In this document: positions 4,251 to 26,695 of the stretch, in pieces
Position numbering within the stretch: the stretch's first letter is position 1
Layout of the letters: each line of letters begins with the position of its first letter
IMG/VR virus record: IMGVR_UViG_3300048577_000245
Span: 1-35,563 of that record
Reading direction: 5' to 3' (one strand)
DNA from: a virus
Taxonomy: Duplodnaviria; Caudoviricetes
DNA length: 35,563 bases
Notes under the pieces: generated by a model
Seen by the model: only the letters and a program-made list of their open reading frames with translations
Told to the model about the DNA's origin: nothing
Databases searched by the model: none
Made by a program: the position numbers and the translations under genes

Positions 4251-7200
4251 CTACTCCGGCACCGCAAACCGCCCCGCCTCCATGGCATCCCGCCGCTTGC
4301 CTGGCAGGTACACGCCGTCCTGCGCCTCCCGGATGCGCTTCTGCCGCATGGCCACGCTCTGCGCAAGGTGCATCGGCTGGATGCGCCGGTTCGGGTTCTT
4401 CTCGTTGAACTTGGCAATGGCCTCCCGCGCCTCTGCCTTGCCCTCTTCGTCCTTTGCCATGGCCGCCATGGCGAACTGCTCCACCAGGGCGCTGCGCCGC
4501 GCCTGCAGAGCGCGGTCGTGGCTGACGATGGCGCTCTTGCCCTCGTAGGCATTGCGCACGCTCGATGGCGAGAACCCGGCCGCCTGGCCCCACAGCGCTG
4601 CGGCGTCCACCTCGTCCTGCACCACGATGCCGCTCTTGTCCTTGACACCCTCGCTGCCGTAGCGAATGGCCTTGAGCGGACCGCGCGCCACGCTGGGCGC
4701 CATGGTCTCCAGCCCGCGCAGGTAGCGCCCCTCGCTCATCTCCTGCAGGCCCTTGAGCACATTGATGCCGATCCCTGCCACCGGCCCAAGCGCCGCGGTC
4801 ATGGCCGACTCTGCCAGGCGCTGGCCTTCCAGACCCTCCTGCACGTCGGGGAAAATCAGCTTGTCCAAGCCCACCCGCCCAGAGATGTCCCAGGGCGTGA
4901 GGCGCGACAGGCCGTGGGCCAGCACCTCAGCGGGCTTCTGGCCGAAGGTGTCGGCCAGCAGGTTCTGCAGCGCCACCTTGGCGTCCCATGGCTCGTCATC
5001 ATCCCCGCCGATCATCGAGGCGGCTGCCAGCAGCGTTGTCACCATGGGCAGGCCCAGCACGCCGGCCGCCATGGCGTGCGTGGTCAGCAGGCCGGCCAAG
5101 GCCTTGCGGGCCTGGGCGCGCGCCTCGGGCGTGGCGCCCTTGAGCGACTGCTGCGCGCTGCGCGTCAGGGTGTAAACCATGTTCTGGCCGTACTGCTTGA
5201 ACAGCAGCAGCACCCGGGCCACATTGCCCTGCATCACGCGCGGGCGGTTGTTGGCCGAGTAGTCGAAGTGCCCGTCGTAGGTCGCCTGTGCAGCCTGAGC
5301 ATAGGCGGCCTTGGCGTCCGCTCCAGCCTCGCGCGCAAGCCGGTAGGCGGCCACGAAGGTGACCTGGCGGTTGAACTTCTCGGCGTGGTGGAACAGGAAG
5401 CTGGCCGCCTTCATCACCGGCTGCAGCTTGTGGGAGACGTTCCGGTCCTCGCCCTGGGCGATGCCGGCCAGGTCGTGGGCCATGGTCACGTCGATGACGC
5501 CCGAGCGCACGGCCTCGTCGAAGGCAGCCTTCTCGTCTGCCGTCAGGCTGGCCGTGATGTCGTTCCTGCCGCGCGCGGCTTCCTGGCTGGCCTGAAGCAG
5601 GGCGGCGCCGGACTTGGCAAAGCCCCAGCGCGCGCCCATGACCGGGTAGGCCACCAGGGCGGTCTGCGTCAGGTTCACCATGGCCGACGCTGGCGACAGG
5701 CCCAGGTGGAACATGAAACCGAAGCTGGTCAGCGCCGTGGACAGCGCATTTGTCTTTGGGTTCATGGCCGCATCGTGGCGCTTGACCATCTCGTCCACCA
5801 CCTGCTGGGCCTTCACCGAATCGAAGCTGCTGTCGGTCGATCCAGCGTCCACGCGGCGCTGCATCTCGCCCAGCTCATCCTGCAGCCGGTCGCCGTAGCG
5901 CAGTTTGGCCAGGTAGCTGGCCCCATGGAATACGTTTTGGGCGAAGGCCCGGCGCGCGTCCTGGCTGAAGCCGGCCGTGCCCTTGCGGTGGATGCCGTGC
6001 TTGGCCCAGGACAGGTCCGGGAGAGACGACAGGTAGAGCTGGCCCAGCGCATCTTCCAACTCGGCGCGCTGTTTGGCGTCCATGCCCTGCTTGTCCAGCA
6101 CGCCGTAGAGCTGCTCCATGAAGCCGCGCCCCACAGTGTCACGCTCGGCCACAAAGTCCTTGGCTTTGAGCACCTTGCCCACGGTGAAGCCTTTGCCAGG
6201 CGGGAAGGCGGCCAGCAACTGGCGGCGCGTGGTGTCGGCCTCGGCCATGGTCTCGGCCCGGCTGACGTTCTCCACCTTGCCATCGGCGCCCTTGACCACC
6301 ACCACGTACTGGCCGAAGCGCGCCAGCGGGAAGTACACGCCCTTGATGTGGCCGAAGAACTCGTCATCCATGCGCTTGAGCAGGGCCGCGCGGCGCTCGC
6401 TGCTCATCTCGGCACGCTCGATGCGCTCCTTGATGGCCGAGCGCACATCGTGCATGTGCTTGCGGTAGGTGTCGCGGGCCCGGGCGAACACCTCCTTCGC
6501 CGCGGGCGACAGCGCCTGGTGTCTGGCGCGCAGCCGTGTCCAGTCCGTCTTGTTGTCGCCCTCCACGAAGTCCTTGGTCGGGTCGATCTGGGCCAGCGTG
6601 GAGTCGTGCATCAACTCGGCGAGCTGGCGCTCGTCGGGCAGCTTCGCCCAATCCTGTGCCAACTTGTCTGCACCAGCACCGGCCTCGTTCTTGTCGGCGT
6701 CCATGCGGGCCATCAGGTCGCTGTAGCGGCGCAGCTCGGGCAGCATGTCGCTGTACACATCCACCAACTGGCGGCGGCCAAGGAACTGCAGGGCAAGGCC
6801 ACGGTAGTCGGCGGCCTTGAAACCGGCCTGCTGGCGGAGGTTGGTGACGGTGAGCGCCTGGAGCGCGTCACCCACGCGCTGCGCCGCCTGCGTGCCCTCA
6901 CGACTGCGGAAGCGTGTCACGTTATCCATTGCTGCTCCACCCTGCTCCAGCGGCGCGCGTCCCGCGTTCTCGATGGCCTTGAGCACGAAGCGTTCGGCCT
7001 CGTTGTAGGTCATCTTGCGGATGCGCTCGGCCAGGCGCTGCATGCCCATGCGCTCGGCCACGCTGGCCAGCCAGTTGGCCAGCACGCGCACCCGCATACC
7101 CAGCTTGGTACCGGCCTGCTTCTGGGCGCGCAGTTCCTCGGCCACCACGGCCAGACCTTCCTCAATGGCCAGCGCCTCGTATTGCGCCGTCAGATCGCTG

Positions 7201-10200
7201 CCGGTGTGCCCCAGGTCGCGCAGGGCCTGCAGCTGCTGGGGTGCATCGGGCGCCTCCTTCTTCCACTGGTTGGCGTATTCCTGCACGCGGCTGTCCCGCT
7301 TTGCCAAGTCCAGCATGGCCTGCACATAATCGGGGGCCGGCAACACATTGCGCACCCCCAGGTGGAACATCTCATGGAAAACCGTCTCGATGACAGCGTC
7401 AGCACTCCCGTGAGCGGAGGCCACAACGACGATGCGACCCTCGCCTGGTATCGCCGCCCCCATTACACCGTTCGGCGCATCGACCCCAAGCTCATCGCCC
7501 CGAACCACGACGTCAACTGGTGGCGGACTGGCGATCCCCGCAAGGGCCTGCTGCACCGCCTGCTGGGCTTCTTCAAGCGATAGTCCGCGCGCGGGCGGCG
7601 CTTCATCGCTGGTGTTGTAGAGCACAACGCCCTCACCTTCCACCTCCTTCGTGCGGATCGTCCCCACCAGCTTGTCCAAGGCTGCGTTGATCGCGCGGCG
7701 CTCCTGCCCCACGGGGAATGGGCGTTTCCAGCCCCAGGGCGTGGCGATGGCCGCGCTCTCTGGCCCGTGGTTCAGGAACGGGCTCTTGCCGCCCTGCGCG
7801 GCGATCTTGTCTTCCACATAGCCTTGGAAGGCCCGCGCCGCCATCTCGTGGGGTGTGGTCCAGTAATCCTTGCCCCGGCCCTGGTCCAGTTCCTTGGCGT
7901 CCATGGCGAAGCGCGTGGGCACCATGCGGGTCTTCTCGCTGCTGGCCTGGGCGTCAGCCAGCATCTTCAGGCGCGCGCTGTAGTGCTGCATGGAGGAGCG
8001 CAGGCGATCCAGCGGCCCATCCTGGTCGGCATTGAAGCCCTGGCGGCCGCGCACCGCCTTCATGATGGCGCTGATCTGGTTCAAGGCATCATTGGTCCAG
8101 CGGACGCCCGACGCGACCGAGCGCGCTCCACCCTTGGTTTCTACGCGCAGATCCAGCAGTTCACCGGCAACGATCTTCTCTGCCACGGCATCGAACGCGG
8201 CCAACTGCTCGGCCGTGGCCGGCTTGTTATTGCGCTTGGCGTAGCGCTCATCGAGCTGCCGGGCAAGGTCGGCGCGGATGCCATCCAGCCGCTGCTGCAC
8301 GTCGGCACGAGCGCTGGCCACGAACAGATCGGCCTTGGCCGTGTCCTCCAGGTACTGCTCGGCCTTGCGCGACATGGTACGCATCAGCTCGGCAAACGCA
8401 TCGCGCAACTCGGCGCGCATGCCAGAGCGCTCGCCGCGCGTGCCGGAGCTGACCATGTTGTCCCCGCTGTCGCTGCTCACCTGCAGCGAGCGCGTGCCGT
8501 CCTTGTCCACCACCCACTGCGCGGAGGCCTTGCCGTCCTGGCGGGCAAAGTAATGGTCCAGGGCATGGAACCACTCGTGCGCCAGTGAGCCGGCTCCGTT
8601 CATCTTGGTCAGGTTGATGACCGCCTTGCCCGGCTCGTAGTGCGCGCGCGCCCCGCTCAGGCCATGGCCCCGGGCACCGAAGGCCAGGGCCAACTCGCCA
8701 TTGAGGCTGACGGCGCGCGGCGGGATGTTCATCACATCGGCCAGGTCCAGCAGCCCATCGTAGGCGTCGTTGAGCAACTGCTGGCGCTCCTCCTGGTTGT
8801 TCCAGTTCCCGAACTCCACGCCACGGAAGCCGAACACCCTGGTGAAGTCGCTGTCGCGGGCATGGCCATCGCGCCGCGCTGCGCCGACGCGCTGGTCAGA
8901 ATCTGGCCGCGGCAGGTCGGCTTCTCCGAAGGTCGTGTTCGTCTCGATGATCTGCTGGGCATGGCTGGCCATGTACTCCAGCGCATCCTCGCGCGTCTGG
9001 AACACCTGGTCCACCACCTTGACGCGCTTGCGCTCGGCGACGTCGCGCCAGATTTCCCAGCCCGTGCCTTCACCCTTGCGCACCGGAACCACGCGGTGCT
9101 TCTGCGCCACGGCGATCAGGGGGATGGCCTGCTCAGCGTCCTGTTGGGTGGCATAGCTGCGCTCGCCCACGCGCCGGGGCTGGCCCAGGGAGTCCGTGGA
9201 GCGCGCGTCGCGCACCGTCCAGCGACCCGTCTCGCCGGGCACGCTGCTCTTGACGATTTGGCTGACATCGAAACGCCGGGCCCAGGCCGGTCGATCATCG
9301 GTACTGCGTGGCCGGGTTGCACGCCCTCCACCGCCCGCGTCCTGGTCCTTGCGAGCGCCGCCGATCTTCTCTCCGAAGTCCTCGATGCTGGTGGTGGGCC
9401 GTGGTGCTGCTGCGCGCGCTGGGCGTGGGCCAGCATTGTGTGAATTCGCTACCAATTCGATAGCAGCTTGTGCATATGATGCGAGCGCTTGAGCCTGTTT
9501 TTCCTTCACGTCTTGCCGTGGGCCAGATGCTTGGGGGTGATCCTGCTGCTGCACGGCTTTGGAAGTTGGTTCATTTTGGCCTTCAGCGCTTTCTAAACCT
9601 ACTTCTGCAGCTATCTTTTCAGGAGCGTTTGTGCTGGTGGTGGACCGTGGTGCTGATCGCCCATCCTGCTCTTCGGTGCGCACCGTGCTGGAAATTCCAT
9701 CCTGCAGCCGCTGCAGTGCCGCCACGTCTGCCCCTGCTCGGCCCTTGGCCTGCTCATACCCAGCCCAGGCCGCAGCGCTGCTGGCGTCGCTGAATGTCGG
9801 CGCACCAGCAATGGGCTGGCCACTGTCCGGGCCAGTCTTCACCGCTGGCAGCCACTGCCCATCACCGATGCGCGTTGCTGCGCTTGGCGGGTATGGGCCA
9901 TTCGCTTCGTGCAGGGCCGCGATGTCAGCCACTGAATCCGCACCGACTTGTCCCGCCCACGCATCCAGCATGTCAGCGGCGGCAGCGTATGCCGCCCCGG
10001 GCTCGCTCGTTGTACCCATTCCATCCGCGGCGGCGCGCAGGCGCTGCGCCTCCTGGCGATACATGCCTTGGCGCTTGTCCTGCGTTGCAATGCCGTCAAT
10101 CTGATCGCGCAGACCGCGTGCAATATCTCCCGCACGGGTCACGGGCGTGCTCTTGGCGCCATCCTGACGCACACCGGTACGCTGCGCATCGGCCGCGTCG

Positions 10201-12173
10201 ATCTCAGCCACCACCTGGGCCAGTCGCTTGCCCTTCGGGTCAATGCCCATGGCGCGCGCCACACGGTTGGCCTGCATGGCGTTTGCGCGCCAGTTGGGAG
10301 CACGCTCCGCTACCGATTCGATAGCTGCCTGCGCTTGCACCTGCTGCGCTGGAGACGCATTTTGGCGCAGCGCTTGGAGCACAAAGCCCAGAGATGTATC
10401 CCCACCTTGAGCCACCGCCTCATGCGTGCCAGCCAGTTGCTGGCGCCGCAGCTCAGCCTGCGCCGCGGCGAGCGTGGCAAACGGTGCGCCGCTGGGCGCA
10501 GCCACCACCAACGACGCGGCCTGGCTGGCCGGGGCCGGGAACTGCGGCACCACGTCATACCCCCTGCCACTCGCATGCCGCACCACGGCCGCAAGAACGC
10601 CAGCATCGCGCACCTGGTTACGCAGAGCATGCGCCATGTCCAAGCGCAGAGGTTCGCCAGTGGGGTTGATGGAAGCAGGTGTTTCAGCACCGGCGGCCAT
10701 GGGAAGCCGCAGGGCAGCCCGACCTTGCTCCATCCCGAGAGCGCGTTCCTCGATCACCCGCCCCTGCACGTCAATGACGTTGCTGTCATCGGTAACACCC
10801 GGGCCAGTGCGACGCACTTGCAGGTCGCGGCCCGTGGCAGCGATGAACCGGGCCTCCTGCGCGGCGGCAGTGTCCATGGCCTGGGCGACGTGGCGCGATA
10901 GCGGGCCGGCGGCCGGGTCCAAGCCCATGCGCTGCGATGGCGTGCGTTCATCCATCGACAGGCCCGAGGTGTCGAACTCTGGGCCGGGCATATCCACGCC
11001 GTCCGGGCGCTGCGGCGCTGCGCCGGCAGCGGTATCCCATTGCGGCGTGGCCTGCGTCGACTCGTAGTCAATGGTTGCGGCGCGCGCACGCTCCACCTCG
11101 GCAGGGTCTTCCAGGCTCAGGCCCGCGGTATCCACGTCGCGCATGAAGTCCACTCCGCCCTCGCGCGGCGGAACGGCTCCCGGCGCGCTCTGCCAGTTGG
11201 GCGTATCCGGTGCGGCGACAGGTTCCGCTGCAGGCGCGTTCGGATCGACAGCGCCAGCCTCGGTCGTCCAGGTGCTGGTGGGGTCTGCAGCGCGTGCTGT
11301 TTCGGCCTTGACCTGCTCCTCCTGTTGTGCCCGGCGGCGCGCGCCGTCGACCGCGCCGGCCGCGCCGCCCATCACCCAACCACCGATGCCGCCCATGGCA
11401 GCCGACAGCGCGGTGTCTTCAAGGTTCTCCGTCCTGGTTGGGTCCTTGAACGCGCCCCACTGCTCGATGACATTCTGAGCGCCTTCGGTCGCGCCCTCCT
11501 TCAGCGCGCCCTTGCCCACTTCCTTGAGGATGGTCCCGGCCGCACCACCAGGCACGCCCTGGAGCACATTGAGCGCCTTGCCCATGCCCACGCGCTCCAA
11601 GGCCGTCGCAGGGATGGCTGCGGCCAGCGCACGGGCCTTGTCCTCCTGGCCGGACTCCTTCTGCTCCTGGCGGATGCCGCCGTATTCCTGAGTGAAGATA
11701 GGCAGCAAGCTACCCGCCACTCCGCCGATGGCGCCACCTGCAGCTGCACCAGCAGGGCCAACAACGCTGCCCAGCGCTGCACCAGCCTTCGCTCCCACGG
11801 CACCACCAGCAGCGGCTGCGGCAATCTGCGGCGCGAACTGGCCCACCGATTCCTTGACCGCCAGCCACGGACTGTCCACCAGGTCGCGCAGGCTGCGGAT
11901 GCCCGCCGGGTTGCGGTCGATGATGCCCTGACCTGCGTCGTGCACCGCGCGCGTGACGGCATTGGGGCCCACCACATCCTCGGCAGCAGTCGCCGCAGTG
12001 GTGAGCATCTGCCCGCCTGTGCGTTTGATGGTGGGGATGAAGCCCGGGCTGGCCTGTGCAGGCTTGCCAAGAGCCTCCTCAAAGCTGAAGCCCCCGCTAT
12101 CAGCCGCACGGCCAGACTGGGGTTTGTGGTTGGGGCCGATGGCCTCTTCGAAGGAGAAAGACTCGTTTGCCAT
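4251..12173 (-). CDS. Giant polyvalent internal-virion/ejected protein (2640 aa): LPD5-like and LPD1-like segments, two HExxH motifs, C-terminal PLxRFG domain
   Basis: Gly/Ala-rich N-terminus typical of podoviral ejection proteins; IEDFGEKIGGARKD (~9340-9386); FRGVEFGNW...AHYEP...GSLAHEWFHALD (HEWFH 8565-8579); YWTTPHEMAARAF; HEMFH (7362-7376); YFPLARFG (PLARFG 6312-6329). Start taken at MANESF. Confidence 0.85.
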   Translation of the reverse strand: MANESFSFEEAIGPNHKPQSGRAADSGGFSFEEALGKPAQASPGFIPTIKRTGGQMLTTAATAAEDVVGPNAVTRAVHDAGQGIIDRNPAGIRSLRDLVDSPWLAVKESVGQFAPQIAAAAAGGAVGAKAGAALGSVVGPAGAAAGGAIGGVAGSLLPIFTQEYGGIRQEQKESGQEDKARALAAAIPATALERVGMGKALNVLQGVPGGAAGTILKEVGKGALKEGATEGAQNVIEQWGAFKDPTRTENLEDTALSAAMGGIGGWVMGGAAGAVDGARRRAQQEEQVKAETARAADPTSTWTTEAGAVDPNAPAAEPVAAPDTPNWQSAPGAVPPREGGVDFMRDVDTAGLSLEDPAEVERARAATIDYESTQATPQWDTAAGAAPQRPDGVDMPGPEFDTSGLSMDERTPSQRMGLDPAAGPLSRHVAQAMDTAAAQEARFIAATGRDLQVRRTGPGVTDDSNVIDVQGRVIEERALGMEQGRAALRLPMAAGAETPASINPTGEPLRLDMAHALRNQVRDAGVLAAVVRHASGRGYDVVPQFPAPASQAASLVVAAPSGAPFATLAAAQAELRRQQLAGTHEAVAQGGDTSLGFVLQALRQNASPAQQVQAQAAIESVAERAPNWRANAMQANRVARAMGIDPKGKRLAQVVAEIDAADAQRTGVRQDGAKSTPVTRAGDIARGLRDQIDGIATQDKRQGMYRQEAQRLRAAADGMGTTSEPGAAYAAAADMLDAWAGQVGADSVADIAALHEANGPYPPSAATRIGDGQWLPAVKTGPDSGQPIAGAPTFSDASSAAAWAGYEQAKGRAGADVAALQRLQDGISSTVRTEEQDGRSAPRSTTSTNAPEKIAAEVGLESAEGQNEPTSKAVQQQDHPQASGPRQDVKEKQAQALASYAQAAIELVANSHNAGPRPARAAAPRPTTSIEDFGEKIGGARKDQDAGGGGRATRPRSTDDRPAWARRFDVSQIVKSSVPGETGRWTVRDARSTDSLGQPRRVGERSYATQQDAEQAIPLIAVAQKHRVVPVRKGEGTGWEIWRDVAERKRVKVVDQVFQTREDALEYMASHAQQIIETNTTFGEADLPRPDSDQRVGAARRDGHARDSDFTRVFGFRGVEFGNWNNQEERQQLLNDAYDGLLDLADVMNIPPRAVSLNGELALAFGARGHGLSGARAHYEPGKAVINLTKMNGAGSLAHEWFHALDHYFARQDGKASAQWVVDKDGTRSLQVSSDSGDNMVSSGTRGERSGMRAELRDAFAELMRTMSRKAEQYLEDTAKADLFVASARADVQQRLDGIRADLARQLDERYAKRNNKPATAEQLAAFDAVAEKIVAGELLDLRVETKGGARSVASGVRWTNDALNQISAIMKAVRGRQGFNADQDGPLDRLRSSMQHYSARLKMLADAQASSEKTRMVPTRFAMDAKELDQGRGKDYWTTPHEMAARAFQGYVEDKIAAQGGKSPFLNHGPESAAIATPWGWKRPFPVGQERRAINAALDKLVGTIRTKEVEGEGVVLYNTSDEAPPARGLSLEEAQQAVQQALAGIASPPPVDVVVRGDELGVDAPNGVMGAAIPGEGRIVVVASAHGSADAVIETVFHEMFHLGVRNVLPAPDYVQAMLDLAKRDSRVQEYANQWKKEAPDAPQQLQALRDLGHTGSDLTAQYEALAIEEGLAVVAEELRAQKQAGTKLGMRVRVLANWLASVAERMGMQRLAERIRKMTYNEAERFVLKAIENAGRAPLEQGGAAMDNVTRFRSREGTQAAQRVGDALQALTVTNLRQQAGFKAADYRGLALQFLGRRQLVDVYSDMLPELRRYSDLMARMDADKNEAGAGADKLAQDWAKLPDERQLAELMHDSTLAQIDPTKDFVEGDNKTDWTRLRARHQALSPAAKEVFARARDTYRKHMHDVRSAIKERIERAEMSSERRAALLKRMDDEFFGHIKGVYFPLARFGQYVVVVKGADGKVENVSRAETMAEADTTRRQLLAAFPPGKGFTVGKVLKAKDFVAERDTVGRGFMEQLYGVLDKQGMDAKQRAELEDALGQLYLSSLPDLSWAKHGIHRKGTAGFSQDARRAFAQNVFHGASYLAKLRYGDRLQDELGEMQRRVDAGSTDSSFDSVKAQQVVDEMVKRHDAAMNPKTNALSTALTSFGFMFHLGLSPASAMVNLTQTALVAYPVMGARWGFAKSGAALLQASQEAARGRNDITASLTADEKAAFDEAVRSGVIDVTMAHDLAGIAQGEDRNVSHKLQPVMKAASFLFHHAEKFNRQVTFVAAYRLAREAGADAKAAYAQAAQATYDGHFDYSANNRPRVMQGNVARVLLLFKQYGQNMVYTLTRSAQQSLKGATPEARAQARKALAGLLTTHAMAAGVLGLPMVTTLLAAASMIGGDDDEPWDAKVALQNLLADTFGQKPAEVLAHGLSRLTPWDISGRVGLDKLIFPDVQEGLEGQRLAESAMTAALGPVAGIGINVLKGLQEMSEGRYLRGLETMAPSVARGPLKAIRYGSEGVKDKSGIVVQDEVDAAALWGQAAGFSPSSVRNAYEGKSAIVSHDRALQARRSALVEQFAMAAMAKDEEGKAEAREAIAKFNEKNPNRRIQPMHLAQSVAMRQKRIREAQDGVYLPGKRRDAMEAGRFAVPE
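9448..9502 (+). repeat. Intragenic copy of the 55-bp host repeat
   Basis: Ungapped 34/55 identity to 2362-2416 (hand count), with ATAGC, GCGCT, GAG and TTTT blocks at identical offsets. Confidence 0.6.
9572..9626 (-). repeat. Intragenic inverted copy of the 55-bp host repeat
   Basis: Minus strand GCTCCTGAAAAGATAGCTGC...GCGCTGAAGGCCAAAATG; ATAGCT at offsets 13-18 and GCGCTG.AGGCCAA at 38-51 as in 2362-2416 (29/55). Confidence 0.5.
10309..10363 (+). repeat. Intragenic copy of the 55-bp host repeat
   Basis: Ungapped 35/55 identity to 2362-2416 and 36/55 to 9448-9502 (hand count). Confidence 0.6.
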
Positions 12174-12269: not shown

Positions 12270-12276
12270 TTGACCC

Positions 12277-12615
12277 ATGAAAGCCGTCTTTGTCGAGCTC
12301 CCTGCCTTCTCTCGTCATCGGGCCAGCTACTTGGATGATGACGGTTTCCGTGGCCTTCAGGACACGCTCATGAAGAACCCCGCGGCTGGTGACGTGATCG
12401 AAGGAACAGGTGGCCTACGGAAGCTTCGGCATGGCGATCCGCGCCGTGGGAAAGGCAAGCGTGGCGGCCTTCGGGTGATCTATTACTGGTGGGATGGCGG
12501 CCCGCAATTCTGGCTGTTCACCCTGTACGACAAGGACGAAATGTCCGATCTGACGCCGGATGAAAAGAAGGCACTGAAGAACCTATTGAAAGCAGAACTG
12601 GAGGCACGCCGATGA
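12277..12615 (+). CDS. higB: Type II TA toxin, RelE/HigB-2 family
   Basis: NPAAGDVIEGTGGLRKLR...GKGKRGGLRVIYY...LFTLYDKDE; toxin-first gene order. Confidence 0.9.
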   Translation: MKAVFVELPAFSRHRASYLDDDGFRGLQDTLMKNPAAGDVIEGTGGLRKLRHGDPRRGKGKRGGLRVIYYWWDGGPQFWLFTLYDKDEMSDLTPDEKKALKNLLKAELEARR

Positions 12616-12926
12616 GCAAGCGCAATCTGTTCGCAGAACTATCCGAAGGCTTTGAAGCCCTGGCCGACGAACGCGCAGGCAAGAAGACCCTGCGCACCCA
12701 TGAGGTGGAATCCAGGATTGCACCCGAGGTGACTGCCGCTGAGCTGCTCGCCCTGCGCGAGCGACTGCATCTGTCGCGCCCAGTGTTTGCGGGGTACCTT
12801 CGCACCAATCCACGCACGCTGGAAAACTGGGAGCAAGGCCGTGCCAAGCCCAATGCCCAGGCGGCAGTGCTTATTCGCTTGGTCGAGAAGTTTCCAGATA
12901 CGGTGCAGCGGCTGGCAGCAGTCTGA
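12612..12926 (+). CDS. higA: HigA-type XRE HTH antitoxin
   Basis: LRERLHLSRPVFA...RTLENWEQGRAKPN HTH; ATGA overlap with the toxin gene. Confidence 0.9.
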   Translation: MSKRNLFAELSEGFEALADERAGKKTLRTHEVESRIAPEVTAAELLALRERLHLSRPVFAGYLRTNPRTLENWEQGRAKPNAQAAVLIRLVEKFPDTVQRLAAV

Positions 12927-14504: not shown

Positions 14505-14647
14505 GCGCTCTGGGAACGCTTCAACCCTGAACAGGCCCTGCCGGGAAGACCTCCGTCGGCGGCTTACTTGAGCCAACTCAATGCAGCAGGTCGCGACCAC
14601 TCGGTAGCATGGAAGCTCCTCAACAACCACGCAGAAAGGGCTGCTGC

Positions 14648-18113: not shown

Positions 18114-19214
18114 TTACTGCAGGTAGTGGTCGATCGACAGCAGGCCGAAGTCCTCAATGGACTTGTCGTAGATCGAATAGAACTGGGGCTTGAGCAGGCC
18201 CAGGATCTTGTCGATGTTCAAGCCCACCTGGCTGTCGTACTGGAAGAGCTTTTCCACCCAGTCGCCGGGCCCCAGGTCAGCCATGCCCAGCGCCTGCGCG
18301 CCGCACAACAGCGTGCGCGTGCCGTTCACGGCGCCACCTGCACCCCACTTGGCACCTGATGCCGCGCCCTTGGTCGTGTAGACCAGGCCATGCTCATGCA
18401 GAACGGCACCATCCACCGTCACCGTGGCGCCGGTGAACCATGGCGAGTCGGTGCCCGCCTTGGTCGCCACGGCCACAACCGCGCGCTGGTAGTCCGGATC
18501 CTTCTTGAGCTGGGCCAGGGAACCAGGCGCCAAGAACATGACGAAGTACGGCTTGCCACCGGACATCAGCGGCTTGATGCGATGCTCTTTCGCATAGGCG
18601 ATGGCGTCCACGATCATGCTGTACTTGGGCACGTAGGCGCTGGTGATGTTGCCGGTGTTGGACACGGCCAGCGAAGTGCCATCCCACATCAGCGAGCGCT
18701 TGGCGCTGGGCGCCTTCACATCGGCCGCGAACGCCAGGCTCGGGAACGGCGAGTTGACACGCGGCGAGCCATCGTTGTTGAAGGCATAGCTGATGCCCGA
18801 CATCGTCAGGAAGGCGAGTTGGTCAGCACGGTTGGCCAGCCAGAACGAGAGCTTGTCCTTGCCCTGCTCACGGAAGTTGATCACCGTCTTCTGATCGGCC
18901 ATCTTGCCCTTGTTCTTCACACCATGGCTGATCTGGTCGATCGTGATGATCTGGCTGTGCGACTGCATGGCCTCTTCGTTGCCTTCGCGCTCGTTGTCGC
19001 CAATGACGCCATCGCCGACCAGGTCGGCGACGAGCTGGAAGACGCACTGCTCGCCCTTCTCCGTCTTGGAGAGCTCGGTGATGCGCTGGATGACGTTGTT
19101 TTCACCCTTGCCCATGAAGTTCTTGATGAACATCTGGTCGCGGGCGGCGCTCCAGGTTTCGCGCGCCCAGTTGACCTTCTGAATGGGCGTCAGCCCTGCG
19201 AAGTTGGTTTCCAT
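18114..19214 (-). CDS. Major capsid protein, N4-gp56/DUF4043-like (366 aa)
   Basis: ITELSKTEKGEQCVFQLVADLVGDGVIGDNEREGNEE...IDQISHGV...LCGAQALGMAD; GGAG RBS before METNF. Confidence 0.9.
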   Translation of the reverse strand: METNFAGLTPIQKVNWARETWSAARDQMFIKNFMGKGENNVIQRITELSKTEKGEQCVFQLVADLVGDGVIGDNEREGNEEAMQSHSQIITIDQISHGVKNKGKMADQKTVINFREQGKDKLSFWLANRADQLAFLTMSGISYAFNNDGSPRVNSPFPSLAFAADVKAPSAKRSLMWDGTSLAVSNTGNITSAYVPKYSMIVDAIAYAKEHRIKPLMSGGKPYFVMFLAPGSLAQLKKDPDYQRAVVAVATKAGTDSPWFTGATVTVDGAVLHEHGLVYTTKGAASGAKWGAGGAVNGTRTLLCGAQALGMADLGPGDWVEKLFQYDSQVGLNIDKILGLLKPQFYSIYDKSIEDFGLLSIDHYLQ

Positions 19215-19382: not shown

Positions 19383-20375
19383 TCAATCGCCGCGCGCCTT
19401 CTTTCGCTCGGCTTCCGGCAAGGCCATGTACTCCTCGTCGCTGAGCTTGGAGGTGTCGACCACCGGTGGCGTGGCGCGGTTGCCCATTCCGGCCTGCGGC
19501 AGCGGAGGCTGCTGCAGCGAATGGTTGGCACCACGTTCATTGGCCCGCTGGGTACGGATATCACCAGAAGCACCCGTACCCCGTCCATCCCTATACGGGG
19601 ACGGCGCGAATTTCGGTGCAATGGCGAGCGTTGCCTCGCTGATGGCCTGTGCCTTGGGCATGCCACGCTGCATCTTCATGGTGGCCGACGCTTCAATCAG
19701 TTCCAGTGCCTCGGCGCCCTCGGGCGATTCGAGCCAGGGAAACTGCCCCAGCAGTTGCTCGACCGTGGCGGCGGTCTGGTTCTGCGCCTTCTCACTTGCG
19801 CTAGCTTGGAGAAGGCGCGCCAGAGCGGCCTCCTCGATGGCGACATTGATCTGCAGGCGCAGCGCTGCAGCGGCCTTGGTGTCGCCGTCCAGCATGAGCT
19901 GCGCGTACTGCTCTTCGGCCTCCTGGATGCTGAAAGCCTGGTCAGTCGGAAGCACGGCAGGCGCTGCAGCCGCCGGGGCAGCACGCGCCGCCAGTTGGGC
20001 ACGCAGCTCCTCCACCTCGGTCTCCAACGCCTTGCGCCGATCGTTGACCTCGTTGAAGCGTGCACGCGGGATGCCGTTTCCGCCCTTGTCACCGCCGGCG
20101 TCGTCCATGTCGGCAGCACCTGCAGGCACCTCGCCATGGCCGGGCTGCTGCTCACCTGCCGCCACCAACGCGGCCAGCGTCTCGGCGCTCGGGGCATCGG
20201 TGGCATGGTCACCGCGCAGGCGGCGGCGATCTTCCTCGGACTGGGCCATATAGGCATCGTCATCGTCCAGGGTGGCCACGTCCGCATCGACAGTTCCGCC
20301 ACCACCCGTGTCGGCGCCATCGTCGCCCGCGGGAGCCATATATCGGGCCAGCAGTTTTTTAAGCATAGGGTTCAT
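19383..20375 (-). CDS. Capsid scaffolding protein (330 aa)
   Basis: Acidic N-terminus, IPRARFNEVN plus coiled coil, C-terminal KLSDEEYMALPEAERKKARGD; lies between portal and capsid genes. Confidence 0.8.
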   Translation of the reverse strand: MNPMLKKLLARYMAPAGDDGADTGGGGTVDADVATLDDDDAYMAQSEEDRRRLRGDHATDAPSAETLAALVAAGEQQPGHGEVPAGAADMDDAGGDKGGNGIPRARFNEVNDRRKALETEVEELRAQLAARAAPAAAAPAVLPTDQAFSIQEAEEQYAQLMLDGDTKAAAALRLQINVAIEEAALARLLQASASEKAQNQTAATVEQLLGQFPWLESPEGAEALELIEASATMKMQRGMPKAQAISEATLAIAPKFAPSPYRDGRGTGASGDIRTQRANERGANHSLQQPPLPQAGMGNRATPPVVDTSKLSDEEYMALPEAERKKARGD

Positions 20376-20406: not shown

Positions 20407-20583
20407 TCACTTTTTTGCGGGGGTCTGCAGCTTCTGCAGCTCCTCGATCTTTTCCTTGGCCTTGGCGAGGGCTGCCTTCAGGCGCTTGGGGTCCTTGCGG
20501 ATCTCCTCGGCCTCGGCCAGCGTGCGCATGTCGCTCTCGGCCTGCCAGTCCTTGTCCATCGCGATGCCAGATGACTTGGCCAT
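20407..20583 (-). CDS. Small conserved-looking phage protein (58 aa)
   Basis: WQAESDMRTLAEAEEIRKDPKRLKAA; strong RBS GAGGAG. Confidence 0.75.
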   Translation of the reverse strand: MAKSSGIAMDKDWQAESDMRTLAEAEEIRKDPKRLKAALAKAKEKIEELQKLQTPAKK

Positions 20584-20593
20584 ATCGTTCTCC

Positions 20594-22705
20594 TCAGGGT
20601 TGGGTGAATTCACGGACGCCATCGGCGCCAAGGGTTTCGATGCCGGCCTCTTGACCGCGCGCCGGGCTGGCGGGCGTCAGCGGGTCGGTGTTGCGGGGCA
20701 TCTCCAGCGCGGGTACGCCTGCATCCGGCTGCGGAACGATGGGCGCGGCGTCGTGGTCCACCGCCCCTGCCGACCTGAGCAGGCCATCGGCCAGAGTTGC
20801 GGTCTGCGGCGTCTGGGCGATGACCTGGGCGGTCTGGATCGCGCTGTACTGGCTCTTGACCTGCACGTCCGTGGCCTGGACGTCCGCCTTGCGGGCCTGG
20901 GCTTCAAGTAGGCGCACCCGGGCCTGGACCGTAGGGTCTGCTGGCGGCTGGTTGCCCTGCATGCTGGCCAGAATCTCGTGCTTGTCGGCAAGGTTGGAAT
21001 AGCGGATCACCTGCGGGTCGGGGATGCTGATGCCTGCCTTGCGCATCTCCAGTGCCTGCTGGAACTGGCTGTTCTGGAAGGTGACCTGCATCGGCTGCTC
21101 GGTCACCACCACGTCGTAGGTGCCGATGGTCACGTCGTTGAGGTAGCCGCCAGAGATCGGGTCGAACCGGTTGATCTCCAGCGTGTTTTCCACCTGCTTG
21201 CCCGTCAGAGGGTCGGTCTCGGTGATGCGGAAGATGCGGTGGCTGTCGTAGTAGGTCTGGATCAGCTTCAGGATGCGCTTGGCCAGCAGACGGCGCGTGT
21301 AGGCCAGGTTGTCCAAAGGCACGGCCAACTGCTGCTGGCTGGCGAACTGCTTGGCCTGGATGGCGATGCCAGACACCTCGGGGCCCTGCTGCCCGCGCAT
21401 AGCCTCGGGCACGGTCACATCCTTCAGCGCCTTGTCTGCCCGGTCGATGATCCGGTCGACGCCGGTGGGCACCTGGTTGGGCTGGATCTTCTGCGGCGGC
21501 GTGCTGCCCTTCTTGTACTCGACCACCAGGCCCGTGCGGGCCCCCACCTGCTCCAGCTCGTCCATGGTCATATTGGTCAGCGAGTTCTCCTCCACGATCC
21601 AGCCGCTGTTGGCTGCCGTGTTGACCACATGCACGTACTGGCTCACCGCCTTGTTCAAGGCCTCCTGTGGGCCCATGGCGTCATCGACCATGCCGCCCGT
21701 CTTGCCGCGCCGGAAGTAGGCGAAGTACGGCACCACGGTGAAATGCTCGTAGGGGCTGTAACCATCGAACAGTGTGGCCGTCAGCGTGGACACGGTCCAC
21801 TTCACGCGCCGGCGCATGCGCTTGGCTCTCACTGCGCCCTGGGCCAGCGCGTCGGCAATAGAGTCCTGGGCCAGCTCGGCCTCGGCGCGCACATCGCCCG
21901 TGGTGGGCCAGACGATGCAGGGCGTCAGCTCGAAGACAAAGCGCTGGCGGTCAATGATCCGGTAGCGCTGCAGCCCGTCTTCCTTGCGGGCACAGGCATC
22001 GAAAGCGCCGATGTTGTCGCGGCTGGCGAACTTGCTGCGCGTGTCCTCATCGTCCATCTCGCCGAAGTCGGCGCCGGCATCGCTGCTCTCCTCGGCCGCC
22101 TTGCGCGCCTTTTGGCCGTAGAGCTGCGCGATCTCATCCAGCGTCATCCAGCGGGTGATGAGCACATCGCCCCACTTGTCCGGGTCGTAGGCCTTGGCGT
22201 CCGGGTCGGGGATCACATCCATGGGGTCGAGGTCGCTCACCACGATCTCGCCCTGGATGTTGTTGTCGAAGCTCACGCGCACGTCGAAGTAGCCACGCTG
22301 CTGGATCACGCCATCGCTGAACACCTGGGTCTCGTGCCAGTGCAAGTTGCACATATCCACCACCTGCATGGCCACCTTCGAGAGGATCGTCGCCCGGTTC
22401 AGGTCAGCGTCGCCCCCGCGCGGCTTGAAGGCAATGTCCATGCGGTTGTGGATCTGGTAGCCGATGGTCGCGTTGACGCTGGGCTTGATCTCGTTGAACT
22501 CGTAGCAGGGCCGGCGCTCCTGGGCGAGCTGGGCCTTCGCCTCAGGCGTCCATTGCCGGCCGCCCCCCATGTACATGTCCTCGCAGCGTGCGGCATGCGG
22601 CAGATAGTCCAGGTGGCCGCGATCCTTGCCGTACTGGTAGCGAGCCCAGTTCTCACGGGCTGCGCCGTCTGCCAGGCTGGTGGGTGATGTGCTGTTCATG
22701 GTCAT
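20594..22705 (-). CDS. Portal protein (P22/N4-like)
   Basis: GGRQW...RPCYEFNEIKPSVN...QIHNR, DPDA, PQEALNK, SGIAI motifs; ATGA overlap with terL. Confidence 0.9.
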   Translation of the reverse strand: MTMNSTSPTSLADGAARENWARYQYGKDRGHLDYLPHAARCEDMYMGGGRQWTPEAKAQLAQERRPCYEFNEIKPSVNATIGYQIHNRMDIAFKPRGGDADLNRATILSKVAMQVVDMCNLHWHETQVFSDGVIQQRGYFDVRVSFDNNIQGEIVVSDLDPMDVIPDPDAKAYDPDKWGDVLITRWMTLDEIAQLYGQKARKAAEESSDAGADFGEMDDEDTRSKFASRDNIGAFDACARKEDGLQRYRIIDRQRFVFELTPCIVWPTTGDVRAEAELAQDSIADALAQGAVRAKRMRRRVKWTVSTLTATLFDGYSPYEHFTVVPYFAYFRRGKTGGMVDDAMGPQEALNKAVSQYVHVVNTAANSGWIVEENSLTNMTMDELEQVGARTGLVVEYKKGSTPPQKIQPNQVPTGVDRIIDRADKALKDVTVPEAMRGQQGPEVSGIAIQAKQFASQQQLAVPLDNLAYTRRLLAKRILKLIQTYYDSHRIFRITETDPLTGKQVENTLEINRFDPISGGYLNDVTIGTYDVVVTEQPMQVTFQNSQFQQALEMRKAGISIPDPQVIRYSNLADKHEILASMQGNQPPADPTVQARVRLLEAQARKADVQATDVQVKSQYSAIQTAQVIAQTPQTATLADGLLRSAGAVDHDAAPIVPQPDAGVPALEMPRNTDPLTPASPARGQEAGIETLGADGVREFTQP

Positions 22706-24273
22706 GCAGTCGATTGGTCCCACTGGCCGTGACCAGAGCCAGCGAGGCGGTCGCGCCAGCTCTTGGTCCGAGGCTTGGGTTCGGGTTTCGGAAGGTCGGC
22801 CGCGAAGGTCATGGCCACGGAATCGCCCTTGTCCGGGCTGCGACCCAGCACCAGGCGGATATCGTCTTTGCTGCTGATCTGGATCGCGGCGCGGCGCCCC
22901 ATGGTCACCACCTTGTACCGGGGCGCCGTGAGGTCGCCGAGCAGCTCTTGGTCGGGCGGCAGTGCGATGGGATCAGGATTCGTCGGGTCCAACGCCTCGC
23001 GCAGTAACCAGTACATCTCCGCGCGTTTGTTGCGGAAATGGAGCTGCCCGGCCTTGTCCGTCAGGGCGCTGCCCTCGGACCCCACGACGGGGTGCACGTG
23101 CAGACCCAGGCCCTTGATGAAGTCCAGGGCGCTGGAACCGATGCCGATGGAGTCGATGCACACCACAGCGCCGTCGCGGATCAGCGGCACCACGAAGCCG
23201 GCGGCGGTCGGCCCATCCTTGGTGACCACGCCCGGGGCGGTGACAATCCTGTCGAACCACTGGCCGTGCCGGCGCGCGGCCGATGACTTGTCCTGGCCTC
23301 CCCGGGACGGATCGAAGCCCAGGGCGGTCATCGGGCCCTTGGTCTGCTTGTCCTCCCAGCGCGCCTGGGCGGCCTTCACCCAGTCCGTGGGGATCAGCTG
23401 CCACACTGGATCGGTGGTGCCAGCATTGAAGTCGCCGCGCAGCATCTGCGAGCGCAGCGGCTCTGGCAGCGCCTGAAGCGTGGCCTTGTATCCGGTGGTG
23501 GTCAGAAACAGGTTGTCGTCGACGCGCGAGGGAATGAAGGTCCGGCTCTTCGGCGTCATGAGTTCACCGCCCACCATGACCGGGGTCGCATCGTGCACCT
23601 CCTGGTCCTCGCCCTTCTCATTCGTCACATACCAGCGCAGCTCGCCCGGCTTGGCAGGGTTCGGGTGCTGCGGGTCCAGCCAGGCAGCCCAATACCGCTT
23701 TACCCACTCGCCCTCGGCGGTGGTGGGCGGATTGCCTGCGGCCACCACGCGCTGGCGCACCTTGGGGTTGTCGGTTCGCATCCAGCCGATCAGGGTGCGG
23801 AACTGAAGCTCCGTGAAGTGGGTGATTTCGTCGAAGCCCTTGAAGTCGTGCGGCCGCCCCTGGTACTTCATCCAGTCGTCGGGCTTCTGCACGCTACCCA
23901 GCTCCAGCACCTTCTTGCCTGGCAGGCGCCAGAGGTGGTCCTGTCCGTTGTACCCGAGCCGCGACCCGAGGATGGCCGTCATCCGCTCTTCCAGGCCGAT
24001 GAGCTGCACAGCCTCCCGGCGGAAGATGATGCTGTGCTCCTGCTCGGTGAGGCTCAGGCCCAGCAGCAGCTCCGACTTGCCGCCGCCCGCACTCCCACCA
24101 TAGAAGACGATATCGGCCTCGGAATAGTAGGCCGCCGACTGCGGGCCAGCCTGCGGCACCCAGATGGCAGGGCTGGCCAGCATCAGGAAGGAGTCCACCG
24201 CCGCGCGCATCTCGGGTGCCATGCCCTTGAACATGGCCAGGATCTGCTCTGGCGTGGGGGCGGCCAGCTTCAT
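22702..24273 (-). CDS. terL: Terminase large subunit
   Basis: Walker A YGGSAGGGKS, Walker B FDEITHF, GNPP, nuclease GFDPSRGGQD...SPDKGDS. Confidence 0.95.
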   Translation of the reverse strand: MKLAAPTPEQILAMFKGMAPEMRAAVDSFLMLASPAIWVPQAGPQSAAYYSEADIVFYGGSAGGGKSELLLGLSLTEQEHSIIFRREAVQLIGLEERMTAILGSRLGYNGQDHLWRLPGKKVLELGSVQKPDDWMKYQGRPHDFKGFDEITHFTELQFRTLIGWMRTDNPKVRQRVVAAGNPPTTAEGEWVKRYWAAWLDPQHPNPAKPGELRWYVTNEKGEDQEVHDATPVMVGGELMTPKSRTFIPSRVDDNLFLTTTGYKATLQALPEPLRSQMLRGDFNAGTTDPVWQLIPTDWVKAAQARWEDKQTKGPMTALGFDPSRGGQDKSSAARRHGQWFDRIVTAPGVVTKDGPTAAGFVVPLIRDGAVVCIDSIGIGSSALDFIKGLGLHVHPVVGSEGSALTDKAGQLHFRNKRAEMYWLLREALDPTNPDPIALPPDQELLGDLTAPRYKVVTMGRRAAIQISSKDDIRLVLGRSPDKGDSVAMTFAADLPKPEPKPRTKSWRDRLAGSGHGQWDQSTA

Positions 24274-25325
24274 TGCCGTTCACCTCCGCCCGTCAGCTGA
24301 GAGAACATGGCCAACAGCTCCGGATTGCCCTGCAGCACGGCCGACAGGCGCACCGCGCGCTCGGTGTCGGACATCGTGCGCAGTGCCAGCGGGTCGTTGC
24401 GTTGGCCGTTGTCCACCTCGTACAGGCCCAGGTGACGCCACAGCTTCTCAGCGAAGGTGGCCTTGTCGTGCATCAGCACCTCGATGCCGTGCCGGGTCCG
24501 CTTCACGCCGGCATACAGCTGGGCCGCGGCCGGGCTCAGGTAGCGGGTGTCCTTGATGACATCGCGCGACAGGCCATCCCCGCAGCACTCGATGCAGTCA
24601 GGGTTGGGCGGCCGGTGGGGGTTGAAGCCCGTCCCGCCCTCTTCGTCAAATTCCTCGCCATCCTTGGCCGTCCTGCGCCACTGCTCAAAATCGGCGTCGC
24701 GCTGCACCTGGGTGCGCTGGCGTTTGAAGTCGATCCCCCAGCAGTACCGGCAGCAGCCGACCTTTGTCTCGATGAGTTCGCGGGGGTCGGCGAACACGAT
24801 CTGGGCGGCCTGCAGCAGCAATTTGTCCGCCGTGACCTGTGTCCGCTCCTGCATAGCGGCCCTGCCAGCTTGTACCGCTGCCTGCACCTCAACTCTCCCC
24901 AACCAGCGGGCTGCCATCGTCTCAGCCGTGCGGATCGGTGTGCCGGGCACGGCGCGGATGTACGCCTGCGTGCCGTTCAGGTCCACCAGGTACTCGTCCA
25001 CGAAGCGCTGCTGCCGGGCATCCAGTCCTTCGGCCACCACGGGCACAGGGGCAGCTGCAGACGCGCGAGCGGCGCGCACCCTGCCCTTGGGCTCTGGCTT
25101 GACCTTCTCGGGCTTGGCAGGCCGCTCCCAGCCTTCGGCGGTGGCGCGCTTGGCCACCATGGTGTGGGAGACCCCGAAAGTCCGGCCGATCTCCCGGGTG
25201 GACTGGTGGCTCCCACAGTACGCCTTCTTCACCCCCACCCAGTTGATGGTGGACGTGGGCGCGGCCTTACCACCCACAGTTGGGCTGGATGCTGGTTTGG
25301 GGGTCTTGCGGTTGCCGGTTGCCAT
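24270..25325 (-). CDS. terS: Terminase small subunit with N-terminal HTH and Cys-rich insert
   Basis: RQQRFVDEYLVDLNGTQAYIRA; CCRYCWG...PNPDCIECCGDG; ATGA overlap with terL. Confidence 0.88.
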   Translation of the reverse strand: MATGNRKTPKPASSPTVGGKAAPTSTINWVGVKKAYCGSHQSTREIGRTFGVSHTMVAKRATAEGWERPAKPEKVKPEPKGRVRAARASAAAPVPVVAEGLDARQQRFVDEYLVDLNGTQAYIRAVPGTPIRTAETMAARWLGRVEVQAAVQAGRAAMQERTQVTADKLLLQAAQIVFADPRELIETKVGCCRYCWGIDFKRQRTQVQRDADFEQWRRTAKDGEEFDEEGGTGFNPHRPPNPDCIECCGDGLSRDVIKDTRYLSPAAAQLYAGVKRTRHGIEVLMHDKATFAEKLWRHLGLYEVDNGQRNDPLALRTMSDTERAVRLSAVLQGNPELLAMFSQLTGGGERQ

Positions 25326-25375: not shown

Positions 25376-25416
25376 TGGGAGGCAAAATGGCGCATCACAT
25401 TCAGGAGCCCGCCAAA

Positions 25417-26199
25417 ATGGACTGGAAGACGCTGCTCAATGAGTCTGACTCGTTCAAGAGAGTGATGGACGCCCAAAGCCGAGCCGGCCAGTTACACGAT
25501 TACTTTGGCGTTTCGGGTCCTGAAGAGCTGGAGAGGATCCTGAAACCCGCCAGCCTGATGCCCTATGAGAGCGCGGCCGCCTCAACGGAACGAGAGGCAC
25601 GGCAGACGCTTGAGAATGCGCTCGGCCTAAGTGGACTTGCAACTCACAACGCTCAGACTGCTGCCGATTTCATGCGAATGGAACTCAAGAATGGCATGGA
25701 TGCTGCTGGTCTGACCGACAGCGATCCAGATGCCTTTGCGGAGCGAATCAGAACTGAGTTCGGGAAAGCCTCAGGGTTGCTTGATAGCAAAAACCTAGGC
25801 GATCTGGATGGTTATGCAAGGATCGACTTCGACAAGATTGATCGTCAGACGAAAGAGCAGCACCAACAGCAAATGCTAGAGATGTCGCAGGAACACGCGC
25901 GGCGCATGGTGGATGATGCTGCTGAATTCCGGCGGCGGGAAGATGCCAAGCTCGAATACGCCCGCCGCAGCGCCGACGCGTCGGAGGAAGTGCTTGCGGA
26001 AGAACGCCGCAAGCGAGGCGTGGCCGAACTCACCGCCCAGCAGGCGAAGGTCGACAAGGACAAAGCGGAGGAGCGAGCTGAGCGGGCCGAGCGTAGGGAG
26101 CGGCGCTTGGAACGCCTTGCGGTACTCGGGTTGATCGGCACGGTGGCAGGCTTGGTAATCGCCGCCTGGTCCTTCATCAAGGACGCCATGGGTTGGTAA
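25417..26199 (+). CDS. Coiled-coil protein with C-terminal transmembrane anchor (260 aa), moron
   Basis: RBS CAGGAG before MDWKT; charged helical stretch, then LAVLGLIGTVAGLVIAAWSFI; antisense to the flanking phage genes. Confidence 0.75.
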   Translation: MDWKTLLNESDSFKRVMDAQSRAGQLHDYFGVSGPEELERILKPASLMPYESAAASTEREARQTLENALGLSGLATHNAQTAADFMRMELKNGMDAAGLTDSDPDAFAERIRTEFGKASGLLDSKNLGDLDGYARIDFDKIDRQTKEQHQQQMLEMSQEHARRMVDDAAEFRRREDAKLEYARRSADASEEVLAEERRKRGVAELTAQQAKVDKDKAEERAERAERRERRLERLAVLGLIGTVAGLVIAAWSFIKDAMGW

Positions 26200-26200
26200 G

Positions 26201-26695
26201 TCAGACGCCCAGATCCCGCTTGAGCTGCTTCAACTCGTTCCAGACGACGTTCACCAGGAAGTTCGCGTCGTGCCCACTCTGGATGTTAGAGAACTGCGCA
26301 AACTGCCCGGCCATGAGAGCGCCCGCCTGCCTGGCCTCGCGTGGCTGCATCACTACGACCTGCTCGCCGACCTCCAGAACAAAAAAGCCGTCCGTGGTCA
26401 TGGATCCATAGACCGGCCGAGGCGCGTCATACCGAGGAATCGGAACAAAAACACCCGGGCGCACACGACGCAACTGCTCGCTGTCTACCATGCGCCCTAC
26501 GTGATCATCGATCTTGGTAATCGACAAGCCAGTCAGTTCGGCGAGCGACTCGCGCGTGACGACTTGCTCTTGGTTGTACAGATCAATGACTGCGTCCCAA
26601 ATGATCTGGGCGGTGCTCTTCGCCTCCTGGGAAGACTTTTTGGGTCTGCGCACCTCCGGCGAGGCAGGGAAAGTCGCATTTATTGCAGATTGCAT
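26201..26695 (-). CDS. Winged-HTH protein; candidate late-gene regulator
   Basis: VTRESLAELTGLSITKIDDHVGRM...LRRVRPGVF wHTH; last gene of the early-right operon (Q-like position). Confidence 0.7.
   Translation of the reverse strand: MQSAINATFPASPEVRRPKKSSQEAKSTAQIIWDAVIDLYNQEQVVTRESLAELTGLSITKIDDHVGRMVDSEQLRRVRPGVFVPIPRYDAPRPVYGSMTTDGFFVLEVGEQVVVMQPREARQAGALMAGQFAQFSNIQSGHDANFLVNVVWNELKQLKRDLGV

Follow-up and report, generated by a model that had tools for sequence, protein, structure and literature searches.

The virus record IMGVR_UViG_3300048577_000245 (Duplodnaviria; Caudoviricetes), whose full 35,563-base stretch is herein called the window, carries a complete integrated virus-like element. 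It belongs to a family found in Comamonadaceae bacteria and encodes a podoviral head with its packaging and ejection proteins; after PHROG and Pfam scans no tail or lysis gene was accepted. From the letters alone, an earlier note had proposed that such an element may be a podoviral counterpart of the phage-inducible chromosomal islands of the capsid-forming kind (cf-PICIs). The existence of a family, the common origin of its head genes and its exchange of adaptors with tailed phages all support that proposal, and from them we infer the part that concerns borrowing. Judged from sequence comparison, the element is real and conserved, and most likely a satellite that descends from podophages and borrows tails; we put at roughly 70% the probability that it is a podophage-derived, capsid-forming satellite taking its nozzle, fibers and lysis functions from phages like Pseudomonas phage A1002 and Acidovorax phage AP1.

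The left end of the window contains host genes (a nucleotidyl transferase and a PALP enzyme), the tRNA-Leu(CAA) gene that is the integration target (3363..3447, + strand) and the core of the attachment site (att; 3392..3450, +). Record G006, which is 100% identical to the window over 8661 bases, supplies the right end beyond the earlier note's view: three open reading frames (ORFs) without annotation, another small one where the excisionase gene would sit, an integrase gene (L033:10785-11867) and beside it a second att copy (58/59; L033:11965-12023), for an att-to-att length of 35,475 bp. None of the right-end ORFs matched a tail or lysis family in the PHROG scan.

Scans of 51 window ORFs against PHROG and Pfam bore out the late gene order read in the earlier note. 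On the minus strand, a conserved Q-position gene, likely a late regulator (26201..26695; phrog_8117, a family without annotated function), is followed by terS (24270-25325) and terL (22702-24273; span of both 22702..25325), a P22-like portal (20594..22705; PF16510), a small conserved ORF (20407..20631; 58-74 aa), a scaffold with weak PHROG and Pfam matches (19383..20375) and a 366-aa major capsid protein (18114..19214; phrog_334, PF13252; ~50% identical to Kochitakasuvirus capsids and 78% to that of AP1). Beyond these lie a 137-aa gene that by position likely encodes a capsid cement or decoration protein (17633..18046; 39% to an AP1 structural protein), a conserved 117-aa protein also present in tailed kin (17195..17548), an SU10-type adaptor (16530..17189; PF24175, homologous to A1002 gp47) and a 523-aa helical or disordered protein (14940..16511), which is likely an ejection protein, its AP1 homolog matching phrog_2534 (“released from the phage upon host infection”). 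The series ends with a 2640-aa large polyvalent protein containing LPD1 and LPD39 (4251..12173), herein the giant protein, and the tRNA-Leu(CAA) gene. The terS/terL and terL/portal pairs overlap by 4 bp, and all nine core late genes tested are uninterrupted. The 18-bp gap between the adaptor and 523-aa genes and the single antisense moron ahead of terS (25387..26199, +; 270 aa, a coiled coil with a C-terminal hydrophobic segment) were also as first described.

None of the 51 window ORFs matched a nozzle, endolysin, holin or spanin family, in agreement with the earlier note; only two candidates arose. In the 523-aa protein, residues 5-124 resemble tape-measure families (E 1e-11 to 1e-13; PDB 8zdo, E 9e-6); we rejected this as a tail gene because the motif is short and homologs of the protein adjoin real nozzles. 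The other candidate, a weak fiber-family match in the antisense moron, was likewise rejected, since it lies in an antisense coiled coil and has an E of only 0.002. The possibility raised earlier that the 523-aa or 117-aa protein is a nozzle or fiber gained no fold match, from models of low confidence: the 117-aa single-sequence fold (predicted local distance difference test score, pLDDT, 67) is helical in its C-terminal half without a PDB match, and the 523-aa fold (pLDDT 52; predicted template modeling score 0.18), also unmatched, is weak evidence either way. Ankyrin-like hits of the 117-aa protein were dismissed as 16-residue chance matches; in the Atlas it falls in unnamed viral clusters, with a DUF7210 lead at 0.80. 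Tailed relatives carry homologs of both proteins next to a genuine nozzle.

The same absence extends across the family. In each of the first 11 tailless records, genes called by a custom program took up 82-92% of the sequence, and one representative per cluster of non-core ORFs was scanned against PHROGs (102, 101 and 63 entries, including the tailed control G002:C10). No non-core ORF of 20 tailless records, by cluster representative, fell in the tail, connector or lysis category, and the control gave Hc3, holin, endolysin and Rz in the same scan; ORFs shorter than 40 aa or poorly scored were left out, so a tiny holin could escape detection. Of 50 viral records, 25 contain Hc3 (phrog_8040), among them 10 of the 11 whose completeness is rated 90% or more (55.7-71.5 kb); the sole exception at that completeness, G449, is a tailless element beside other DNA. 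Endolysin phrog_7 lies inside the element in 0 of 15 tailless records (the G449 match is outside its element) and in seven of seven tailed ones. Tailless elements have the SU10 adaptor only, the closure family phrog_8040 being absent. The window adaptor family matches chain T of 26FB, from the solved relative A1002, and Hc3 matches chain K, its 398-aa nozzle-base; a 677-aa AP1 protein matches the 620-aa A1002 nozzle-rope, which binds the adaptor, and a 450-aa AP1 protein a further A1002 tail chain. By these matches, the genes absent from tailless elements are the homologs of the A1002 nozzle-base, nozzle-rope and another tail protein.

Relatives were gathered by searching genomes, IMG/VR and 401 family genomes for similar adaptors, and fall into three layouts. 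In the tailless layout (21 records) the order is adaptor, ejection gene, giant gene, att; tailed phages have either adaptor, ejection module, nozzle block and lysis genes (AP1, G419, G420, G430, G442) or adaptor, nozzle block, ejection gene and giant gene (G203, G275, G002:C24). In G419, representing the nearest tailed relatives, the block missing from the window lies after the giant gene and not at the junction between the adaptor and 523-aa genes. This corrects the deletion site first suspected, and the 18-bp gap there is not in itself a sign of loss. A search for close relatives with a tail block at about position 16520 found none.

Tailless elements occupy tRNA-Leu, -Val, -Thr and -Pro sites. 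Eleven that are bounded by att repeats (the window with G006, G001, G002:C55, G004, G344, G032, G030, G293, G198, G443 and G449; the repeat pairs of G004 and G449 are short and imperfect) measure 34.4-38.4 kb (mean 36.4, SD 1.2), compared with 55-71 kb for tailed kin. A tRNA-Leu gene closes the element after the giant gene in G003, G429 and G438, and the sequence continues beyond the giant gene without tail genes in G447, G422, G005 and G328. Distribution is patchy, with tailless elements in 7 of the 401 family genomes; the carriers that have names are Ottowia thiooxydans DSM 14619 and a metagenome-assembled genome of Acidovorax, and runs from sludge, wastewater and groundwater contain close variants (20 rows from 12 studies; contigs show them in four runs). 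Integrase, replication and terminase modules have been swapped. CheckV rates tailless records 56-73% complete. An order-level portal search added only unclassified fragments, in G625.

Sequence phylogeny indicates that the tailless elements are an old lineage, its head genes having a single origin within tailed podophages, and not the product of recent deletion. In a portal tree rooted on G220, all 21 tailless records lie on one branch (support 95/90; 100/99 for a core of 20) nested among 25 tailed ones. In the capsid tree, 20 of the 21, all but G198, share a branch (support 100) with 15 unclassified fragments and no tailed record. As a control for adaptor-based sampling, the searches were repeated with capsid and portal alignments. 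They yielded 77 new capsid sequences; six fall in the tailless clade, none with tail genes (one of these loci being long enough to reach the giant gene), and each new locus with tail genes lies outside it. Alignment columns diagnostic of the clade number 6 in capsid, 11 in portal and 2 in scaffold, with none in the adaptor, decoration or 117-aa protein; the capsid residues map approximately, by offset to A1002, to the E-loop and the A- and P-domains.

The layout and the missing tail and lysis genes recur under purifying selection, a check that the earlier note had proposed: median pairwise ratios of nonsynonymous to synonymous substitution (dN/dS) are 0.17-0.33 for seven genes (by Nei-Gojobori, from nonindependent and partly saturated pairs with dS between 0.05 and 1.5), although values for decoration pairs that span two types reach 1.1. 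Late gene copies are uninterrupted in 183 of 189 cases, and 15 of the 21 elements have all nine whole. The earlier note's own alternative, that these are decaying cryptic prophages from which a terminal tail-lysis block was recently lost, can draw on the fact that a single deletion after the giant gene in a G419-like phage yields this layout, on the six broken genes and on G198, which has insertion sequences and no replication match. The relaxed selection, scattered pseudogenes, variable size and many origins that mark decaying prophages were not found in the family; what was found instead is one clade with 72-94% internal capsid identity, a narrow size range, dN/dS well below 1, whole giant genes and differing integration sites. 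We consider this explanation largely refuted and give it almost no credence.

Tail-borrowing gains support from the adaptor, the docking point of the tail. In trees of 44-48 records (G198, G220 and fragments excluded), the number of changes between tailless and tailed labels is 1 for capsid, portal and scaffold, 2 for the 117-aa protein and 12 for the adaptor (shuffled labels, ~15); it is 1 for terL (6.3 shuffled) and 2 for the ejection N terminus (9.4 shuffled; a short alignment with 11 tailed records). An approximately unbiased test rejects a tailless adaptor clade (p=9.2e-5). With only the 13 closed elements the counts are 1 for portal, 1 for capsid and 10 for adaptor (11.2 shuffled). Tailless G447 and tailed L087 share 65% identity in portal, 64% in capsid and 92% in adaptor, and the tailless pair G443 and G449 share 97% in portal and 47% in adaptor. 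The helix bundle and beta-dock of the adaptor each give 10 changes, so the whole gene is swapped, and since its neighbors (the 117-aa gene and ejection N terminus) stay in lineage, the swap is gene sized. Such exchange shows that the elements meet tailed phages in the same cells.

Several observations weigh against a tail-borrowing satellite. Neither a particle nor an excised circle nor transfer of the element was observed, and no tailless IMG/VR record has terminal repeats. The tailless status of G423, G425 and G428 depends on a record boundary, since these provirus records end with the giant gene, and 6 of the 21 elements have one broken late gene. Mixing is not confined to the adaptor (9 label changes for decoration; 8 for the Q-position gene, 10.3 shuffled; 5 for the ejection C terminus, 7.1 shuffled), and first gathering loci by adaptor similarity can inflate adaptor mixing. 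Among tailed phages, adaptor similarity is uncorrelated with that of the nozzle-base (rho 0.06-0.13, not significant) and only weakly with the nozzle-rope (rho 0.19, below the portal's 0.33); an influence of adaptor type on tail choice is therefore unsupported here. Finally, seven of eight host genomes, which may be incomplete, lack a nozzle-base, nozzle-rope or second SU10 adaptor, so the search that the earlier note had suggested, for a tailed podoviral prophage with a similar adaptor, gave such genes in G002 only; phrog_7 endolysins lie outside the element in four of the eight. A helper must usually come from outside, which is compatible with a satellite without being evidence for one.

The shortage of resident helpers would be explained if the virion were self-sufficient without a tail, the adaptor, 117-aa and ejection proteins closing the head and delivering DNA, with release by others’ lysis or in vesicles. 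That the 117-aa protein has no known role and that the N terminus of the 523-aa protein has a motif common to tape-measure proteins would also fit. Tailed kin, however, have the same proteins and still encode a nozzle; the P22 hub templates the ejection channel (bioRxiv 10.64898/2026.09.03.749273); and adaptor exchange with tailed phages would lack a cause. We therefore hold a tailless virion to be improbable.

Equally improbable is that hosts keep the element for its heads, as decoys, as a sponge for an invader's tail proteins (a form of defense) or as a shell like that of a gene transfer agent (GTA), with spread mostly vertical or by other vectors. Toxin-antitoxin pairs and candidate defense genes among the morons agree with such a role, and draining of nozzle subunits would interfere with related phages. 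Against it stand the element's own integrase, att pair, replication and immunity genes, its four tRNA sites and its presence in 7 of 401 genomes; most hosts have no tail genes elsewhere, and the 6-8.5 kb ejected-cargo genes stay intact. The integrase, att pairs, replication genes, four sites and seven of eight hosts without tail genes likewise separate it from GTAs.

The G002 genome, which holds tailless C55, also contains a 28.9-kb att-bounded element at tRNA-His (G002:C10:45398-74273; L017-L018) that is a mirror image of the head-only element, with an integrase, a shortened portal, a capsid, an adaptor, a full tail block, holin, endolysin and Rz, and without terminase, replication or repressor match. 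This coexistence would fit mutual complementation rather than parasitism, each element pairing with packaging-defective prophages that retain tail and lysis genes. It is seen in one of eight genomes; moreover, the portal match of the G002:C10 element begins only at residue 147, and its adaptor groups with that of G293 and not with that of co-resident C55. This makes complementation very improbable.

As a tail-borrowing satellite, the element would follow a cycle of five steps. DNA damage would induce members with S24 repressors, and an antirepressor or helper signal would induce others, such as the window element. After excision and replication, its own terminase would fill its own procapsid, with ejection proteins and polyvalent cargo inside. 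This head would probably be smaller than that of tailed kin, which is T=9, to judge from genome size and the diagnostic capsid residues; scaling from 63.8 kb at T=9 would give 43.7 kb at T=7, a capacity of ~44 kb. Helper nozzle subunits would then assemble onto the element's adaptor ring, helper lysis would release the particles, and the DNA would integrate into a tRNA gene. P22 heads without hub or needle lose DNA. A head with an adaptor and no nozzle would be neither sealed nor infectious, so helper subunits would best be supplied in the same cell; because a podoviral tail grows one subunit at a time on a head already filled, assembly is probably inside a shared cell, and not through attachment of a free tail as is possible for cf-PICIs. 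The P22 portal successively receives 12 adaptors, 6 hubs and a trimer of the needle (PMC5850374). By swapping adaptors the element would maintain a head that fits the helpers around it, and portal and capsid residues specific to the lineage would prevent cross-assembly of the two heads.

The family resembles cf-PICIs in being integrated and in encoding its own capsid, portal, small and large terminase and adaptor without tail genes. In cf-PICIs, too, the adaptor varies between otherwise near-identical packaging modules, and there the choice of tail is determined by adaptor and connector (He et al., bioRxiv 10.1101/2025.02.11.637232); mixing of the adaptor against stable packaging genes is thus a feature of both. 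That report and PMC10690885 describe cf-PICIs as having T=4 heads, HK97-type packaging with cos ends, and a connector that goes with long siphoviral tails, which a podoviral helper could not supply. In the window family, instead, portal and scaffold are P22-like, a closure protein is absent, control is lambdoid (cI/cro/O/Q-position) and the ejection proteins are its own, and at 34-38 kb it is twice the size; known satellites span 8-18 kb (PMC9618062). The HK97-type operon with protease, the connector, the alpA/primase-rep organization and a size below ~18 kb, all typical of cf-PICIs, were not found: PHROG and Pfam scans of the window matched neither AlpA (the control genes being cI/cro/cII/O/DnaC/ant) nor a head maturation protease (the head comprising the P22-like portal, scaffold and phrog_334 capsid). 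The window element would work like a cf-PICI but is not one by head type, connector, regulation or size.

Other systems share parts of the design. The Streptomyces satellite MulchRoom, compared here by description only (PMC10690885), has its own head and packaging genes, an integrase and a suggested helper tail; it differs in its siphoviral tail, absence of replication genes and unrelated host phylum. A1002 (Kochitakasuvirus; T=9 head; PMC13730344) and AP1 (OM049504) have homologous capsid, portal and adaptor, and AP1 the same head gene order; unlike the window element they encode nozzle-base, nozzle-rope and further tail proteins, AP1 also holin and endolysin, in 55-64 kb. Stx phage phi24B, a complete tailed phage unlike the element, ends its late region with an LPD protein, gp47, comparable to the family's 2000-2850-aa LPD1/LPD5/LPD38/LPD39 proteins (PMC5512222 and bioRxiv 10.64898/2026.04.10.717836), and the latter report proposes that gp47, found in virions, is an ejection protein. 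By analogy with this 2811-aa protein, the giant protein of the window is likely packaged and ejected.

Taken together, we think it probable that these satellites arose once from a temperate podophage, shed tail and lysis genes, kept private heads with their own ejection channel and counter-defense cargo, and fit themselves to the tails of various podophages by exchanging a single adaptor gene. Tail piracy would then have evolved independently in short-tailed phages, in elements routinely filed as ~60%-complete prophages. The tail theft known from head-forming satellites concerns long-tailed systems, in which a finished tail joins a finished head; a short tail takes shape on the head itself and templates the ejection channel, so its theft would need a different mechanism. 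With regulation, replication, packaging and ejection all kept, the line between satellite and temperate phage blurs, and given the CheckV ratings, prophage surveys may be throwing out families of this type as fragments. A cultured carrier, O. thiooxydans DSM 14619, and a solved relative, A1002, make the family a testable case. No podoviral head-only family was found in open-license PubMed Central or bioRxiv texts, although subscription papers (including the original cf-PICI paper) and supplementary satellite tables may hold some; the nearest literature concerns cf-PICIs, cf-PISP in Vibrio (PMC13230959), Mulch/Flayer and VEIMEs.

Individual members show further variation. TerL is ~895 aa in G293 and G438 (523 in the window), with a ~370-aa insertion that is possibly an intein; G344, G005, G328, G004 and G428 have a second terL type (~30-33% to the window's) on the same portal lineage. 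L004 is close to the window in terL (97%), adaptor (98%) and the 523-aa protein (97%), but not in portal (78%) or capsid (75%), reflecting recent exchange of the entire procapsid block between tailless elements. Degenerate giant-gene fragments just beyond the element end in G004 (record positions 648-2344) suggest that an older copy once lay at the site. G198 also has a split ejection gene; it is possibly decaying or of a second origin. In G334:C39 and G152:C11, distant adaptors (33-35%) are directly followed by an ejection gene, the contigs end early and nozzle genes sit on other contigs, so the adaptor-then-ejection order alone is not proof of a tailless element. L027:3598-7488 encodes an uncharacterized 1296-aa moron.

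The C-terminal 880 aa of the giant protein (window 4251-6900, LPD39 onward) are 72-88% identical across most elements, and its middle is a variable domain cassette that includes PBECR and DdrB-ParB; in G428 and G429 (and G438 by similarity) the protein ends LPD38-type, as in several tailed kin. Between the giant and 523-aa genes lie a moron pair of a RelE-type toxin and a helix-turn-helix (HTH) antitoxin (12277..12926, +), both below the Pfam cut-off; an SNase-like ORF, possibly a remnant (12978..13364, +; Pfam); a KilA-N protein that matches candidate defense family PDC-S22 (13279..14115, −); and two small antisense morons of 98 (hydrophobic) and 84 aa without a family match (14208..14902, +). 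A second RelE-type gene (L033:12278-12436) begins just beyond the right att, its DNA 88% identical to window 12241-12399.

Early genes of the window include an AntA-type antirepressor (34674..35408, +), divergent cro-like and cI-like repressors (31434..32440), the cI-like one without a detectable S24 peptidase domain, and a CII-like gene with an HNH endonuclease (29450..30383, −). A non-cleavable repressor was rejected as a family trait: S24 passes the cut-off in G003, G004, G428 and G449, is weak in G293 and G429, and is undetected in the window and several other members. A promoter scan gave no signal above shuffled sequences. A DnaC-like loader, an O-like initiator and a winged-HTH gene occupy 26725..29166 (−); iteron-like repeats (GGGAAATTTGGGC units) at 27957-28199, inside the O-like initiator gene, are likely the replication origin.

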